Assembly: GCA_963697165.1 (NCBI GenBank)
Contig: CAVOMX010000002.1
Location: 1 to 28,759 of the forward strand
Reading direction: 5' to 3'
Source of the DNA: Candidatus Bathyarchaeota archaeon
GTDB taxonomy: Archaea; Thermoproteota; Bathyarchaeia; Bathyarchaeales; Bathyarchaeaceae
DNA length: 28,759 bases
Positions 20,170 through 28,210 of the stretch are shown in pieces. The position numbers were made by a program, and so were the translations under genes. The notes beneath the pieces are model-generated. The model had not been told where the DNA came from and did not search any database. It saw nothing but the letters and a program-made list of their open reading frames with translations. Numbering within the stretch: the stretch's first letter is position 1; every line of letters starts with the position of its first letter.

Positions 20170-21933
20170 TTAAATGAACCTTCTGGGGTCGCTGTCAATA
20201 TCAACTATAGTAGTTTTACCGGATACCAAAGCTTTGTCAACTGCTGCCTCAAGCAGAGTGGGTTCGGTGACTTTGATTCCTAATCCACCTGAGTGCTCAG
20301 CGTAGTTCGCGAAGTTAAAATCGTACAGTTCCGTCTGCGAGCTCTTGTAGCCTTCGACTTTTTGTTCTTGCAAAATCATACCCAACGACTTGTTGTTAAT
20401 TATGAAGACTTTTACTGGCAACTGATACTTCAAAGCAGTCAGGAAATCGCCCATAACCTGAGTGAAACCACCATCACCCGTAATGCAAACAATCTGCCTG
20501 TCCGGATAAGCAAGTGCCGCTGCCATAGCACCTGGCAAGCCGAACCCCATCGACGCCAATAACCCACTCATGACCATTTTCTGAGTCTTTTTCATCTGGA
20601 AATTCCTCCCGAACCACCAGCAGTTTTCCCCAACGTCCAACGAGATGATCGCGTCTGCTGCGACTTTATTGTTCAGCACCTTCATTATATACGGCGGCCT
20701 TATAGGTTTCAACGAAGCATCAGCTTCCCGTAGAAGTTGTTGGTTCCAGACTTGCTTTAGATTTAAGATTTCATCTAGATAAGCGATTTTCTGATTCGGT
20801 TGAACTTTTCTAGTAAGTTTCCGAAGGAGTACAGCACTGTTACCGAGTAATCCAACTTCGACAGGATACTTCCTTGCAATGTTCTTCATGTTAATGTCGA
20901 TTTGAACCATTCGTTTCTTTGGAATCTGCGTATATTGACTGAAGGAGGAGCCGATTACTATAAGCAAATCTGATTTCTCCACTAGTTTAGCAGCAGTTGT
21001 TGAACCAATACCGCCGTGGCAACCTGCCGACAAAGGGTTGTCTTCGTCGATAACACCCTTCGATCTGAAAGTGGTCACTATGGGCGCGCTGATTGTTTGA
21101 GCCAGTTTCAAGAGTTTGTTTCCTTGTCCTCTGGTCCCGAAACCTGCGATTATTACCGGACGCTCTGCTTGGTCTATCGCTTTAGCGGCTTTCTCTATAA
21201 GCGAATCCTCTACGCCGAAGGCCAAACTAGGCATTCTGCCCTCGAATGGCTGAATGTTCTTGTCACAAGGTAGTTTTTGCACATCGTTAGGTAAACCGAT
21301 GTTGCTTACCCCTTGATCCAGTAATGCATGTTTTACGGCGAGCGTGACTAGCATCGTTGTTTGTTCTTCAGTCATGAGAATTTTATTAAAGACACAGATC
21401 GGCTCGAAGAAACTATGCTGGTCGATTTCTTGGAGTGATCCCGGTCCAATAAATTGCCTCGCCACCATACCTGACAAAACAAGAACTGGCGAATGATCCA
21501 AGGAGGCATCATAAAGGCCTGTAGCTAAATTAGTTGCTCCGGGTCCGGAAACGCTTAGGCAAGCAGCAATATTTCCGGTGAGTTTGCCGTAAGCGGAGGC
21601 CATGAAAGCTGCAACTTCTTCGTGTCGCACTTGGATGTATTTTATTTTGTTACTTTTCCGTAGAGCGTCAACGACCCCAAGTGTTGATGTTCCAGGCACT
21701 CCGAAGACGTATTGTACACCCCATTCTGCGATTTGTTCAATTAGAACTTCTGATACTGTTTTACTTTTCTTTAACTGTTCCACTGTTTTCTCTGTTAAGA
21801 TTACGAATACGGTTTTGGGTACTCCGCACACGGGGCACACCCATTCTGATGGCAAGTCGCTGAATTTCTTTTCTTCTTTTAATTCATCATATACATAGTT
21901 GCAAACTGTGCACCTGTACTTTGTCACGATCAA
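20170..21933 (-). CDS. rubredoxin-fused thiamine-pyrophosphate enzyme (pyruvate oxidase/PoxB-like)
   Basis: N-terminal [11 protein letters not shown]...[14 protein letters not shown] rubredoxin, followed by [25 protein letters not shown] and the TPP motif GDGG...NN. Confidence 0.88.
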
Positions 21934-22580: not shown

Positions 22581-23929
22581 CTATCCCATAGCAGCACAAG
22601 TATGATTCTTCTTTTGGAGATCAAGAGGGCATCCTCCTCCACAAATCTGCAGTTGGGGACACTCCCTACATTTTGGTTCTACATATTCTCTATTTCTAAT
22701 TTTGACCGCTAGCGGATGATTCCAGATGCTTTTCCAATCATTCTTCAAGATGTTACCTAAACTCTCAAAGTAACTCTGGCAAGGATATACATCCCCGTTT
22801 GGTCCAATACACATGTTAATCATTGCAGCTGAACAAGATTTTATACCCAAACCGAGCTCGATTGGATTAAATTTACAGTATTGGGTTGGAGTATACCACA
22901 AGAATTTTAATCCCAGCTTAGTTGCTTTATCCTGAACCTTTGGCAGAAGAATCTTCAAATCTTCAAGAGGAAAAACAAAATCTTCAATTACATCTTTTGC
23001 TTTTCCAGAATAGATCAAACTATTGCATCCGAAGGCAGCAACCCCCAAGTCCTTAATAAAATCTATAGTATCAAGAAAATCCCCCGCATTATACTTACTT
23101 AATGTTGTGTTTGTAGTTGTGTAGATTTTTGTTGGAATCAGATTCTTAATTCCTGCTACCGTCTCCGTCCAGCTTCCCATAATACCCGTCATCAAATCAT
23201 GAATCTCTGGCCTATGAGACTCGAGAGTTACCTGAACAAAATCAAGTCCAGACTCCCCGAGAGATCTAACATATTTTTCATCAGTTAATCTTCTTCCGTT
23301 GGTAATTAGACCCGTTACTAAACCCTTTTTTTGTCCATAACTAAGGAGTTCAAGCAAATCCTCCTTTAAGGTTGGCTCTCCACCCGTAAAAGTCAAAATA
23401 AAAACGCCAATCCGATAAAGATGATCAATAACCTGCTTCCATTGTTCAGTAGAAAGTTCATCTGTTTCGTGGGATCCACCAGCATAACAATGAATACAAC
23501 TATTCTGGCATCTGAAAGTAAGTGACACATCAACCCGTATAGGAGCAGAATACTCTTGGCTAAAAGGCTCAATTTTCTTTAAGTCAAGATATGATATAGG
23601 ATCCACTTCTTCAGTCTGCACCAATGTACATTAACAGTATAAACCAACTTTTCATAATCAACCCTGGCACGTCTCTCTTTAACCCGAAAAATACTTCTAA
23701 TCTTAGAGACAACCTCTTCAGTTGTCAAACCCTGCATCAAAAAATACGCATAAGCTGTAGAAGTCTCGTTTAAAAATAAAACCGTGTTCGCATTAATAAT
23801 CATAAGCCCATTACCGTCAGATTCAACCCGAAGTTGAAGAGCTAAACCCCTAAAATGGCCTTCCCCTCTATAGGTGTATCTTCCTTGAGGAATTTTTGAT
23901 CTCTGAAAAATCTTACGTGCAAAACCCAT
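22581..23929 (-). CDS. radical SAM/SPASM protein with N-terminal PqqD-like RiPP recognition element; one frameshift at about 23628
   Basis: ATG 23929 (MGFARK...) encodes an RRE-like domain (LRVESDGNGLMIINANTVLFLNETST...TTEEVVSKIRSIFRV...ARVDYEKL). It continues in ORF 22581..23624 with CQNSCIHC, FTGGEP, TNG and SPASM CSAA..GDVYPC...CRECPQLQICGGGCP. Confidence 0.88.
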
Positions 23930-23945
23930 AATCAAACTTCCTTTA

Positions 23946-25577
23946 CTACCCAACTCCTCCACCAGCACATGCACAGGCGCATGAAACACAAGCACAGGCG
24001 CATGCACACGTAGCACAAGCACATACACACTTGGCTTTTTGTTGCACTGGTTGCTTAGATGATTTTTGCTTAGGACCCATGGGAACTATAGAATTAGCAA
24101 ATTTTTCCATATTGACAACAAAATTATTAGCGCTCTTTTCTATCGCAGTAGCTATATTATTAGCAAAATCTGCACCAGGAATTGTAGGAGGTTTTTTTCC
24201 TTGAGCCGGAACCCCAATATTAGGCTTGTATGTCGGATTCGGAGAATAATACCTATAAGAATACCAATACCAAAACCAAAAAGGACTAGGCTCAAAAACC
24301 CTATTGCTAAAAACTGTTTTAGTTCGATCTGAAACCTTCGGATCCAAAAACAACCAGAGCAACTGTTCATCATAAGCTTTGGAGGTTAATTTTGTTGTTC
24401 CAGCTCCTTCAACCTGTCCCCAAGCTTTCTCAACAATCTTTCGATAATAATCTATCGTGTCACTTCTACAATATCCCTTCAACTTTTCCTCCATAGTAGA
24501 TTCAAGAAACATAATCATTGAAGCAAGCTTCTCCTCACCAAGAGACCCGTCATCATTAATAGAATTAAGAAAATCGATCTCATAATATCTCAAAGGATTC
24601 TCTGGCGTTCCTGTTTTGTCAAGGAATGGTTTTAGTATCCTAAATCTAAGAGAAGGAGATGTGTTCTCAACCCAAACAGCCCTCTTCTTAAGAACACTAT
24701 ACAATATCTCAGTGACAATCTGAGGCGGCTTTAAATCCAAAAGATAAGAAGCTTCTACAGCAGTTAATCCCCTTACTATTCCTAGACATTCAATACCAAC
24801 ACTAGGTTTTGAATAGGGTCGCTTACGAGAAACAAATAATACAAAAACTAACACAATCCCAATGACTCCAAATACCAATAATGGCCAAAAACTCTCCAAA
24901 AAATTTTCTAACCCGTCAGATCCATCAGTAACTGAGGTCCATCCTTCCTGTTTTGGATAGGAAACTTCAACCGTAAATCTTTCATCTGGCAAAAGATTTT
25001 GCTTTTCCCAATAAACAGCCAACCTATCATCTTCATATTGGACATTATTCCAAAAGATTGACCCTGTTTTCACTTCACTCTCAGAGACTCCAGGAGGCAA
25101 AACAATAAGCACCCGTGCATCTTCAATAACTGCTTCTGAAAACCAAGATAAAGTAAATTGCATTCCATCATTTCCCGGATTAGTTTCGTCTTCATAAATC
25201 ATGTGAGCAACATTCGTAACCAAAGTAAACCAAACAGTCTGTCCAGCTTGTAAAGGAGAATCAAGATTAACCCTAACATTATAGTCACTTCCAGAACTGA
25301 TATCAGCTGTTTCTAACGTATTCCCAAACTGATCCACAGCAGAACCGATAAAAAAGTCGCCTTTAGGTTGACCAATACTTATCCAATTAATTTCCTGACC
25401 AAAATCAAGAGTTAAGCTAACATTATAAAAAAGATCAATAGAACCGTCCGAATTTATCCAAACTTGCGCCCATTCCTGCCCAAAAAAATATTGCCTCTGA
25501 GCAACAATCCCCTCAACAAATGAAAAACACACTAACCCAACAAGTAACACAACCAGAACAGCAGACAACTTCACCAT
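23946..25577 (-). CDS. single-pass membrane protein (DUF2207-like ectodomain) with C-terminal Cys-Ala repeat tail
   Basis: Signal peptide, then a beta-rich domain starting VWINSDGSIDL, a TM helix FWPLLVFGVIGIVLVFVLFV followed by SRKR, a helical domain, and the tail KCVCACATCACACACVSCACACAGGGVG*. Confidence 0.85.
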   Translation of the reverse strand: MVKLSAVLVVLLVGLVCFSFVEGIVAQRQYFFGQEWAQVWINSDGSIDLFYNVSLTLDFGQEINWISIGQPKGDFFIGSAVDQFGNTLETADISSGSDYNVRVNLDSPLQAGQTVWFTLVTNVAHMIYEDETNPGNDGMQFTLSWFSEAVIEDARVLIVLPPGVSESEVKTGSIFWNNVQYEDDRLAVYWEKQNLLPDERFTVEVSYPKQEGWTSVTDGSDGLENFLESFWPLLVFGVIGIVLVFVLFVSRKRPYSKPSVGIECLGIVRGLTAVEASYLLDLKPPQIVTEILYSVLKKRAVWVENTSPSLRFRILKPFLDKTGTPENPLRYYEIDFLNSINDDGSLGEEKLASMIMFLESTMEEKLKGYCRSDTIDYYRKIVEKAWGQVEGAGTTKLTSKAYDEQLLWLFLDPKVSDRTKTVFSNRVFEPSPFWFWYWYSYRYYSPNPTYKPNIGVPAQGKKPPTIPGADFANNIATAIEKSANNFVVNMEKFANSIVPMGPKQKSSKQPVQQKAKCVCACATCACACACVSCACACAGGGVG

Positions 25578-25909
25578 TTTGGTTCCTCAACTACCTCAAA
25601 AGTATGACCACAATAATCACAAGTAGCATATGGCACTCCGGAAACAGTCTTTATACTATTTGAATTTATAGAAGCCGAACAGTTTGGACATTTCAAAGCA
25701 ACAGCTTTCATCTGACCCGAAAACTCCAATCTCTGAATACTCACCTTAGGTTTTCTAGTCAAGTAATATACGATCCCAAAACCTACAACAAAAAATAAGC
25801 CAGCAACAATTAATCTTGAAACCGCAAACACCGAAGCGAAAGCAAAAATAATTCCCAAAAAGAAAAGAACAGCAACTACAATCGAGCCCAAAACCATCTT
25901 CAGATTCAT
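25571..25909 (-). CDS. 2-TM membrane protein with C-terminal zinc ribbon
   Basis: Two hydrophobic helices, then CPNC...CDYCG. Its stop overlaps the start of the 543-aa gene. Confidence 0.8.
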   Translation of the reverse strand: MNLKMVLGSIVVAVLFFLGIIFAFASVFAVSRLIVAGLFFVVGFGIVYYLTRKPKVSIQRLEFSGQMKAVALKCPNCSASINSNSIKTVSGVPYATCDYCGHTFEVVEEPKW

Positions 25910-27504: not shown

Positions 27505-28210
27505 CTAGTAATGTATTCTATGTTTATGTTGATTGAACTTCTTCGGTTTTAGGGTGTATTCACTGATTTTTATGAACAGCCTGTCGTTGCGTTTTTCTTT
27601 TGTGAATTTTGAAATTTCTATGGTTTCTTTGAATGTTGGTCCATCGATAGTCATGGTGTGGTATTCTCCGTTTTCTCCGCAGGGGTCCATTCCAGTCTTT
27701 TTTGCTAGTGCCCTCAAGTCGTTGACAGAGTTTTTGTTGAGTTCTCGTCCAAGCCATTCTTCAGTGAACCATGTCGTCTCCCCAAGCAAGTGAAGACCGA
27801 TCTGAATCCCGTTGACACTTCTTCTTCTAGAACTTTGCTTGTGTTTTGCTCCCACAAGGGCATAATTACGGATATGTCTAATCCCTCGGTTACTTTATCA
27901 ATCCATCGTCCATGCAAGTCGTCCACAACGTAGATGTCTCCGGTTACTATGCCTTCGATGCCTTTTTCTATCAGTTTTTTTATGGCTTCTCTGTAGCTTT
28001 GTTCGTAGGGTTCTTTTACTTTGAGCTTTAGAAGGGGTATTCCCATTGCTTTAGATTGGAGCTCCATGATGGATAGCGGGTGACAGAATGAGGGCCATGT
28101 ATCGGCAACGAAAACTGCAAGATATGCTACTTCGTGTCTCTTTCTTTCATTGCCCTGTAGCACGCTAGGGCTGATTCAATTCCGCCACTCCAAGAAATTG
28201 CTATTTTCAT
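27505..28210 (-). CDS. diphthine--ammonia ligase-like (Dph6/DUF71) PP-loop ATPase; several frameshifts
   Basis: ATG 28210 gives MKIAISWSGGIESALACY. Then GIVTGDI and MPLWEQ (ORF 27714..28163), and WLGREL and DPCGENGEYHTMTIDGPTF (ORF 27505..27855). Confidence 0.8.

Follow-up and report, generated by a model that had tools for sequence, protein, structure and literature searches.

A conserved cysteine-alanine tail on a membrane protein encoded beside a candidate radical SAM maturase in Bathyarchaeia and bacteria

The window analysed here is a stretch of 28,759 nucleotides from the genome of a Candidatus Bathyarchaeota archaeon (GenBank assembly GCA_963697165.1, contig CAVOMX010000002.1, positions 1 to 28,759). 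It encodes a membrane protein that ends in a tail of alternating cysteines and alanines. The gene of this protein lies between a gene for a small zinc-ribbon protein and the gene of a putative maturase, which combines radical S-adenosylmethionine (SAM) and SPASM parts with a recognition element (RRE) for peptides that ribosomes synthesize and that are post-translationally modified (RiPPs). The zinc-ribbon gene, the tail gene and the maturase gene form one three-gene cassette. The stop codon of the first gene overlaps the start codon of the second (ATGGTGA). The maturase gene is split in the window into two open reading frames (ORFs), 3a and 3b, both directly downstream of the tail gene on the same strand. 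Confidence in structural models is given below as pLDDT, the predicted score of the local distance difference test. The cassette is comprised of the following features.

25571..25909, minus strand: gene 1, a small membrane protein of 112 residues, hydrophobic in its N-terminal half and with a zinc ribbon (CPNC...CDYC) at the C-terminus; ORF and weak zinc-ribbon matches.
23946..25577, minus strand: gene 2, a membrane protein of 543 residues (P0001), distantly DUF2207-like, which ends in the Cys-Ala tail; ORF, homologue searches and model.
23949..24029, minus strand: the Cys-Ala tail, residues 517-543, CVCAC-AT-CACACAC-VS-CACACA-GGGVG; sequence and alignments, disordered in the model (pLDDT 27-37).
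23579..23929, minus strand: gene 3a, an ORF of 116 residues (P0002), the predicted RRE/PqqD-like domain of the maturase; weak match to the PqqD-type model NF033530 (E 2.4e-4).
23630..23631, no strand assigned: an insertion of 2 nucleotides (AT on the minus strand) that breaks the frame between the RRE and the radical SAM part; alignment to a second copy of the cassette on contig C21.
22581..23624, minus strand: gene 3b, the radical SAM and SPASM part of the maturase, 347 residues (P0003), with a possible TTG start; PF04055 (E 9e-24) and PF13186 (E 2.5e-11).

The 27 codons at 23949-24029 of the minus strand encode CVCACATCACACACVSCACACAGGGVG, are followed by the stop codon TAG, and form the C-terminus of the 543-residue ORF at 23946-25577. 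A first-pass annotation of this DNA had counted ten cysteines within 21 residues, arranged in blocks of three, four and three (CVCAC, CACACAC and CACAC), and the translation reproduces this arrangement exactly, from C517 to C537. The codon variation that it had noted is also present: the cysteines are encoded by TGT eight times and by TGC twice, and the alanines, counted over the 29 codons from A515 to G543, by GCT four times, by GCC three times and by GCA twice. Some DNA repetition exists in this stretch, where Tandem Repeats Finder detects a weak period of 21 nucleotides (23966-24030, 3.2 copies, 82% matches). An origin of the motif by chance is excluded. Cysteine makes up 1.46% of the residues in the ORFs of the genome that are at least 150 residues long, the probability of at least ten cysteines in 21 residues is about 1e-13 per position, and about 7e-8 such cases are expected over 515,867 residues. 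The pattern (Cx)3C occurs in 11 of the 34,260 six-frame ORFs of at least 30 residues, and only two of these 11 are long ORFs (546 and 322 residues from stop to stop), namely the tail gene and its copy on contig C21.

The tail is preserved at the level of the protein, as the first-pass annotation had claimed in setting it apart from a mere DNA microsatellite. Among the 120 best database homologues of P0001, which reach down to 60% identity, 119 carry the ten-cysteine tail and the remaining one is a truncated record. When the 15-codon core CACxCACVSCACACA is compared between the window and 28 related archaeal loci, 240 synonymous codon differences are found against 10 non-synonymous ones. In these loci every alanine site of the core uses at least three of the four alanine codons and every cysteine site uses both cysteine codons. 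Purifying selection on the tail at the protein level is very strong. An origin as a DNA microsatellite, by slippage, is rejected because of the synonymous codon turnover in the core, despite the weak 21-nucleotide period.

In an alignment of 29 family sequences, the mean column identity of which is only 55%, the pattern C-A-C...C-A-C-x-C-A-C-V-x-C-A-C-A-C-A is unchanged throughout. The invariant columns of the tail are C519, A520, C521, C524, A525, C526, C528, A529, C530, V531, C533-A538 and G540, and the alanines are fixed to the same degree as the cysteines. No other part of this large, unnamed protein family is as strongly conserved as the tail. The number and spacing of the cysteines, on which the first-pass proposal had leaned, are kept among the orthologues, the three-four-three layout being present in 25 of the 28 related archaeal loci and a two-four-three layout in the other 3. 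This constancy does not extend to the wider family, in which a tail has from 3 to 10 cysteines, yet the (Cys-Ala)n-Gly-Gly pattern is retained there.

The fixed alanine and valine residues between the cysteines point to a chemical or steric role of the alanines, as a simple metal-binding loop would not need such fixity. Metal binding is the alternative on which this finding bears. According to it, the tail is unmodified or only partly modified and binds metal, or an iron-sulfur (Fe-S) or metal-thiolate cluster, in the manner of the CxC motifs of metallothioneins. Through the tail, the redox or metal state of the cytoplasm would be coupled to the ectodomain; the radical SAM enzyme would either build the cluster or put it in place, or would have its task elsewhere. 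Ten cysteines in 21 residues with CxC spacing are what such a site might look like, alternate residues of an extended strand would face one side, and the first gene of the cassette encodes a zinc ribbon. The organisms that carry the tail (Anaerolineae, Zixiibacteriota, Cloacimonadota and Bathyarchaeota) are mostly anaerobes, in which free thiols persist, and this too is counted in favour of metal binding. The authors of the study of the Crp system, described at the end of this text, likewise suspect that the cysteine-rich protein CrpA binds metal (PMC13692751). On the other hand, the residues between the cysteines are invariantly alanine or valine across archaea and bacteria, whereas a metal site needs only thiols, and the enzyme has an RRE, a peptide-binding domain, its nearest structures being peptide-crosslinking maturases. 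Moreover, CxC is not the usual spacing of the ligands of a cubane Fe-S cluster. A metal-binding tail is considered unlikely.

The family to which the tail protein belongs extends far beyond the close relatives. A word-indexed search gave 1555 homologues of P0001 at E<=1e-3 among the 8000 candidates scored; named ones are few and are recorded as 'hypothetical protein' of Bathyarchaeota or Thermoproteota. A profile search of 1.84 billion representatives, in a library clustered at 50% identity, gave 1045 family members at E<=1e-3, and the types of tail were counted in the best 150 of them. A bacterial-type tail, GGGGG-CACACACAG-CACACA-GGGR with 7-8 cysteines, is present in 69, the three-four-three tail in 27 and the two-four-three tail in 2; 7 end in ...CACACACAGGGGCT, 2 are of another kind, and 29, most of which are fragments, have no cysteine tail. 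Among the 114 of these representatives with at least 480 residues, 106 have a Cys-Ala tail. The type II tails are preceded by long runs of glycine and serine and have a charged arginine at the end. When one genome per species was scanned, over 607 stretches that code for CACACAGG turned up, 286 of them in relatives, and 80 loci were kept. The sources of these 80 bacterial loci are Anaerolineae and further Chloroflexota, among which is the cultured Bellilinea caldifistulae, as well as Zixiibacteriota, Edwardsbacteria, Cloacimonadota, Coatesbacteria and others. Being found in Bathyarchaeia and in several bacterial phyla, the cassette occurs in two domains of life.

The order of the genes is maintained over this range. 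Matches to an RRE-like domain and to radical SAM/SPASM domains follow the tail gene in 28 of the 29 archaeal loci other than that of the window, and the 29th locus ends at a contig edge. An orthologue of the enzyme with at least 40% identity lies directly downstream of the tail gene, on the same strand, in 67 of the 80 bacterial loci and elsewhere in the locus in 1. Four bacterial loci are cut by contig ends. In five others, at least 1.4 kb of downstream sequence contains no match to the enzyme; an orthologue is encoded at another place in each of these five genomes (E<=1e-139). A sample of 201 genomes of the class was examined as well, with the maturase counted at E<=1e-60: the tail gene was present in 44 genomes, the maturase gene in 43, both in 42, where they are always adjacent, and neither in 156. 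In the two genomes with only the tail gene and the one with only the maturase gene, the gene is a fragment at the end of a contig. The tail gene and the maturase gene occur jointly or not at all, and a gene for a candidate cysteine-bearing substrate adjoins the enzyme gene by both gene order and co-occurrence. One genome of the class (G093) has two enzyme genes, on contigs C8 and C69 (E 5.5e-154 and 5.6e-123).

The first gene of the cassette is part of this arrangement as well: of 112 loci (L001-L112), 101 have a homologue of it immediately upstream of the tail gene. The matches of the zinc-ribbon protein in NCBIfam are weak and far below the cut-offs. The clusters of ORFs in 110 loci contain the tail protein in 110, the enzyme in 101, the zinc-ribbon protein in 96 and a methyltransferase, mainly in bacteria, in 51. 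No conserved protease or exporter was found among these clusters, which argues against the tail being a genuine RiPP natural product, released by cleavage from a very large carrier. The succession of a recognition segment, a linker and a C-terminal core does mimic the layout of a RiPP precursor. However, the carrier of 500 residues is itself well conserved, and the candidate substrate is a membrane protein of 543 residues rather than a short peptide of leader and core that undergoes cleavage and export, so that the release of a peptide is very improbable.

Two further genes accompany the cassette in many bacterial loci. A gene similar to those of class I SAM-dependent methyltransferases follows it in 49 bacterial and 2 archaeal loci, for example at L074:10228-11013, and is absent from the window; its product might introduce one more modification. 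A second RRE-'radical SAM' paralogue stands right after the true enzyme at L074:9014-10279, in Bellilinea caldifistulae, and in many other bacterial loci. Both the CxxxCxxC motif and the SPASM cysteines are lost in 65 of the 166 ORFs of the enzyme cluster; most of those listed have 377-467 residues and 1-3 cysteines, and the rest are short fragments. The cysteine-poor paralogue is probably an inactive scaffold or chaperone.

In the relatives, the RRE and radical SAM parts of the maturase are contiguous and in frame, and they form a single fused ORF of about 440-540 residues in 71 loci. The CxxxCxxC motif reads CQNSCIHC in P0003. Its cysteines C140, C144 and C147 are invariant in 46 orthologues, as are the SPASM cysteines C351, C365, C383, C420, C423, C429 and C433, and C373 is nearly so; the full set of SPASM cysteines predicted to hold two auxiliary clusters is thus conserved. 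The AlphaFold2 model of a fused orthologue (pLDDT 87.2) contains four strands and three helices at residues 16-104, and this N-terminal domain is predicted to be a typical RRE. The same assignment is indicated by the weak match to NF033530, by the full-length Foldseek alignment and by the fusion in the relatives. Foldseek aligns the model of the fused enzyme over its full length to SkfB (E 3.8e-20, 418 columns, 22% identity), SuiB and CteB, all three of them RiPP maturases that bear an RRE, with 418-461 aligned columns for the three. The best match among the sequences of the PDB is also the sactisynthase SkfB (E 3.5e-21, residues 24-405, the RRE included), and CteB, like SkfB, is a thioether former among the best solved relatives. 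By all sequence and fold features tested, the enzyme is assigned to the class of RRE-radical SAM-SPASM maturases, in which, as far as its sequence tells, it belongs to none of the curated families. A prediction of the complex of the fused maturase with residues 460-546 of its cognate tail protein, in which three 4Fe-4S clusters and SAM were included, gave a score of 0.01 and a mark of 0.32, which speaks neither for nor against binding.

Radical SAM enzymes perform other reactions as well, and one of these could take place on the tail. Every second residue might be epimerized, giving a beta-helix of alternating D and L residues in or at the membrane, or the cysteines might be converted, for example to formylglycine in the manner of anSME. 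The epimerase EpeE and anSME are both among the Foldseek matches (E 1e-10 to 1e-11), and the strict two-residue period and borderline hydrophobicity of the tail would suit an alternating D/L helix. Both enzymes nevertheless match less well than SkfB, SuiB and CteB, over 340-355 aligned columns and with the RRE part left unaligned, and to our knowledge there is no precedent for epimerization or cysteine conversion on (Cys-Ala)n. Chemistry of this kind is regarded as decidedly unlikely.

The AlphaFold2 model of the tail protein, built on the 29-sequence alignment, has a mean pLDDT of 72.7. The parts that precede the tail are as follows.

25500..25577, minus strand: residues 1-26, an N-terminal hydrophobic signal peptide or anchor; hydropathy, and helix 3-19 in the AlphaFold2 model.
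24954..25493, minus strand: residues 29-208, a predicted extracytoplasmic beta-sandwich domain; AlphaFold2 model and Foldseek.
24825..24893, minus strand: residues 229-251, a single strong transmembrane helix followed by SRKR; Kyte-Doolittle peak 2.87, helix 222-250 in the model.
24288..24770, minus strand: residues 270-430, a predicted cytoplasmic helical domain with a small beta hairpin; model pLDDT 72-92, many invariant columns.
24078..24182, minus strand: residues 466-500, the conserved segment IPGADFANN...EKFANSIVP before a variable basic linker, a candidate leader-like recognition sequence for the RRE.

The beta-sandwich is modelled with a pLDDT of 86-94 in ten-residue blocks between residues 31 and 170 and of 82-90 at residues 171-210. 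The best Foldseek matches of the ectodomain together with the transmembrane helix (residues 29-251, 24825-25493) are to ribophorin I/OST1, with E from 7e-13 to 1e-9, and N-terminal domains of M1 aminopeptidases are also among them. Ribophorin I/OST1 is a component of the eukaryotic oligosaccharyltransferase complex, and the Pfam family Ribophorin_I weakly matches 2 of the 29 family members. A comparison of the tail-family profile with the sequences of the PDB gave only a non-significant match to ribophorin I (E 0.56).

The first-pass annotation had placed the tail in the cytoplasm, on the grounds of an N-terminal signal, one transmembrane helix and the positive residues that follow it. Hydropathy and the model support each of these elements: the N-terminal signal or anchor, the one strong helix at residues 229-251 and the subsequent SRKR. 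A cytoplasmic tail is the best reading of the model. A second transmembrane helix at the segment PFWFWYWYSY was considered and rejected, the segment being, with its 10 residues, too short, and polar, with a negative hydropathy. The 19-residue Kyte-Doolittle windows that start at residues 420-440, in this region, have values of -0.14 to -1.54, and the model of P0001 shows a short aromatic helix at residues 435-444. The absence of a second helix thus stood up at this segment, and the proximity of the tail itself to the threshold of membrane insertion is a caveat that the first-pass annotation had missed. On a Hessa-type scale applied as a simple sum, the tail is the third most hydrophobic 19-mer of P0001, with +0.23, after the transmembrane helix (-2.2) and the signal peptide (-0.7).

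In another reading, the tail is either a weakly hydrophobic second segment within the membrane or a 'cysteine string' anchored to lipid, and it resembles eukaryotic CYSTM modules or palmitoylated cysteine strings. The enzyme would in that case help to attach the tail to membrane lipid. Apart from the +0.23, this reading can draw on the linker rich in lysine and arginine that precedes the tail, and on the enzymes of lipid-tail radical SAM chemistry (GDGT-MAS) among the weak matches of the maturase. The match to CYSTM (PF12734) is faint and non-significant, being seen in 1 of the 29 members at E 0.18, and the AlphaFold2 model contains no helix in the tail. The type II tails, furthermore, follow long runs of glycine and serine and end in the charged arginine, and the enzyme has a domain for the recognition of peptides. 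Membrane or lipid attachment as the purpose of the cysteines is improbable.

The segment at residues 466-500 is a candidate for recognition by the RRE. In the 29-sequence alignment P467, A472, V487 and F493 are invariant and G468 is nearly invariant. The model has a helix of low confidence at residues 469-497. The element PG..FA of the segment is retained in the bacterial type II consensus, and the pattern PG..FA...F is common to the archaeal and the bacterial forms.

Taken together, the tail is probably a core-peptide-like substrate of the enzyme encoded immediately downstream. The explanation preferred for the system as a whole, in which moderate confidence is placed, is that an enzyme of the RiPP-maturase type modifies the tail and that it does so most likely by forming thioethers. 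Thioether chemistry is the most likely one because the nearest characterized relatives of the enzyme and the two closest precedents perform it; as an assignment of the actual product, by analogy with them, thioether crosslinks are put forward tentatively. The first-pass annotation had suggested a crosslinking substrate of an Fe-S enzyme. The pairing with such an enzyme finds strong support in the gene order and in the co-occurrence with an RRE-radical SAM-SPASM gene, and the crosslinking itself continues to have the standing of a prediction.

The modification of the tail may be envisaged as follows. P0001 would first be inserted into the membrane with its N-terminus outside and its C-terminus inside. 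The RRE would bind the conserved segment at residues ~466-500, and the radical SAM site would work along the tail, beyond the variable basic linker. Repeated thioethers would be formed between cysteine sulfurs and the alpha (or beta) carbons of neighbouring or cross-strand alanines or glycines, as in sactionine and ranthionine peptides. That the alanines are fixed would be in keeping with their supplying acceptor carbons or with a strict steric requirement. The floppy tail would be stapled in this way and become rigid, at the inner face of the membrane, and some of its thiols might stay free for metal. Since tails with a single block exist, a hairpin of two strands would not be obligatory. It is a more speculative proposal, and a doubtful one, that the (Cys-Ala)n tail is converted by the RiPP-type enzyme into a new structure bound to the protein at the membrane's inner face, either a thioether ladder to alanine or glycine carbons or a cofactor that bears sulfur or metal. 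If this were true, a widespread DUF2207-like family of membrane proteins would gain a function that depends on radical chemistry.

Several findings weigh against the modification of the tail by this enzyme, or against thioethers as its product. The case rests on gene context and family resemblance. Apart from one threonine and one serine, the only acceptors in the tail are alanine, valine and glycine; the lack of aspartate, asparagine, glutamate and glutamine argues against ranthionines of the CrpA type. A single (CA)n-GGG block is all that the tail contains in 14 of the 150 best representatives of the family, and in 3 of the 80 bacterial loci only a diverged, cysteine-poor paralogue lies beside the tail gene. 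No NCBIfam cut-off is reached by the enzyme. The highest score, 143.5 bits, falls short of cut-offs that range over 265-850 in the 25 top matches, which were taken from 75 for P0003, 63 for the orthologue of locus L008 and 58 for the Bellilinea orthologue. Models of the AhbD/NirJ2 type, which are not peptide maturases, score as high as the maturase models. A membrane-embedded tail, in view of its borderline hydrophobicity, is a live minority view. Lastly, the frame of the maturase in the window is interrupted where the RRE passes into the catalytic part, and in the C21 copy both the tail gene and the gene of the enzyme are broken across reading frames. This may mean that the cassette of this bin is inactive, or that there are insertion and deletion errors in the assembly.

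The break in the window can be followed further. The last 16 residues of P0002 are out of frame when compared with the relatives. The two letters at 23630 are missing from every covering contig in four public runs from four studies (1, 1, 3 and 1 contigs), and these contigs also carry a synonymous change within the tail, at position 24000. As the insertion has no counterpart in the four runs, the split of the enzyme looks like an assembly error or a private mutation. A discrete RRE and a separate enzyme could still work together, by analogy with PqqD and PqqE. No RNA run was found among 21 public runs. The second, syntenic copy of the whole cassette, on contig C21 (C21:32400-35855, loci L002 and L003), is 93% identical over 3.5 kb with 14 gaps, and the junction of the RRE with the radical SAM part is in frame in it. 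The C21 copy could stem from a co-binned related strain, could be a decaying duplicate or could contain insertion and deletion errors.

Three other genes of the window, all on the minus strand, deserve mention. At 20170-21933 it encodes a thiamine-diphosphate enzyme of the pyruvate oxidase/acetolactate synthase type, 587 residues long, with an N-terminal rubredoxin domain (PF00301, E 1.5e-9). At 27505-28163 there is a diphthamide-synthase-like ORF of 149 residues that covers only positions 22-140 of the 219 of the profile and overlaps a second ORF; it may be another frameshift, which would fit insertion and deletion errors in this assembly. A protein of 255 residues at 858-1625 matches DUF6994 over the full length (E 8.5e-92).

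No published description of the cassette was found in a literature search that covered neither most subscription journals nor the supplements of the Crp paper. In it, the motif strings matched only DNA primers, CACACAGGGR and 'Cys-Ala repeat' were not found in the papers listed, and the combination of 'radical SAM', 'Bathyarchaeia' and 'RiPP' returned nothing. The DUF2207 papers listed, judged by their titles and the beginnings of their abstracts, include none that concerns a radical SAM partner. An NCBIfam scan gave no model for the tail protein of type I, II or III.

The layout of the tail protein, like its fold, is compatible with DUF2207 (PF09972): an N-terminal signal, a beta-sandwich ectodomain, a transmembrane helix, a cytoplasmic part and a C-terminal tail of low complexity. 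The N-terminal model PF09972 matches 10 of the 29 family members weakly, with a best E of 2.1e-4, and does not match P0001 at E<=1. Classical DUF2207 proteins end in glycine-rich tails, and we know of no radical SAM partner for them. The only listed paper on the function of a DUF2207 protein, SMU.243 of S. mutans, reportedly concerns stress tolerance. With the metallothioneins the tail has in common the high density of cysteines and the CxC spacing. Metallothioneins are small and soluble and have variable residues between their cysteines; here, by contrast, it is a membrane protein that has the cysteines, in a tail of 27 residues, the positions between them are fixed as alanine or valine, and a radical SAM enzyme is dedicated to them by gene order.

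Among the enzymes of known structure, SkfB (PDB 6EFN), a RiPP maturase that forms thioethers, is the best match by sequence and by fold and, like the cassette enzyme of the relatives, has a fused RRE. SkfB carries one auxiliary cluster, in a twitch domain, and its substrate is a small secreted peptide, the sporulation killing factor SkfA, into which it introduces a single Cys-Met link. The cassette enzyme, in contrast, is only 22% identical to SkfB and conserves the full SPASM cysteine set.

A second precedent is StsB, which, according to Precord et al. (2023, PMC10288494), links Cys2, Cys4 and Cys6 to Gly15, Gly13 and Gly11 in a sactionine hairpin, with CxCxC as donors and GxGxG as acceptors. 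Strings of CxCxC can serve as substrates for multiple sactionines, as found for StsA/StsB/StsC and BlaA/BlaB (PMC10288494). The cassette resembles StsA/StsB in having donor cysteines at every second position and an enzyme of the radical SAM/SPASM type with an RRE. It differs in that StsA is a short peptide with GxGxG acceptors, served by a discrete RRE protein (PMC10288494), whereas here alanines stand between the cysteines and the only glycine motif is the terminal GGG. The score of the enzyme with the StsB model (NF045574) is 82.3 bits against a cut-off of 625.

The other close precedent is the Crp system of Methanococcus voltae, in which the RRE-radical SAM-SPASM enzyme CrpC puts thioethers on the cysteine-rich, 28.8-kDa protein CrpA (Dieter et al. 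2026, PMC13692751). The product remains a protein and no peptide is released (PMC13692751). In both systems an archaeal enzyme of this type is encoded beside a gene for a protein-sized, cysteine-rich substrate, putative in the present case, with C-terminal cysteines (PMC13692751). The two are nevertheless distinct. CrpC is a member of TIGR04463, and the 25 best NCBIfam matches of the cassette enzyme, be it P0003 or the orthologue of L008 or of Bellilinea, do not include this model. CrpA is described as soluble, with ten 17-residue CxxQ/D repeats in its 28.8 kDa (PMC13692751), whereas the protein found here is a membrane protein of 543 residues with one short CxC tail, in which there is neither glutamine nor aspartate to make up a CxxQ/D motif. 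The terms 'membrane', 'CXC' and 'Bathyarchae' do not occur in the text of the Crp paper, supplements aside, and Supplemental Data set 1 of that paper holds further cysteine-rich proteins associated with radical SAM enzymes (PMC13692751).

Nearly all that is known of thioether formation by radical SAM enzymes comes from small secreted peptides, and it was only in 2026 that CrpA, the first large protein substrate demonstrated experimentally in archaea, was described. Here an enzyme of this type is tied, by gene order and by joint presence and absence, to the cytoplasmic tail of a full-size membrane protein. If the modification takes place, it would apply the chemistry of peptide antibiotics to a full-size membrane protein, would define a new class of post-translationally matured membrane proteins and would give a first handle on the unnamed DUF2207-like family. 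The candidate substrate is unlike all the described cases in being an integral membrane protein, in its unique (Cys-Ala)n tail, in its zinc-ribbon membrane partner and in its spread over two domains of life.

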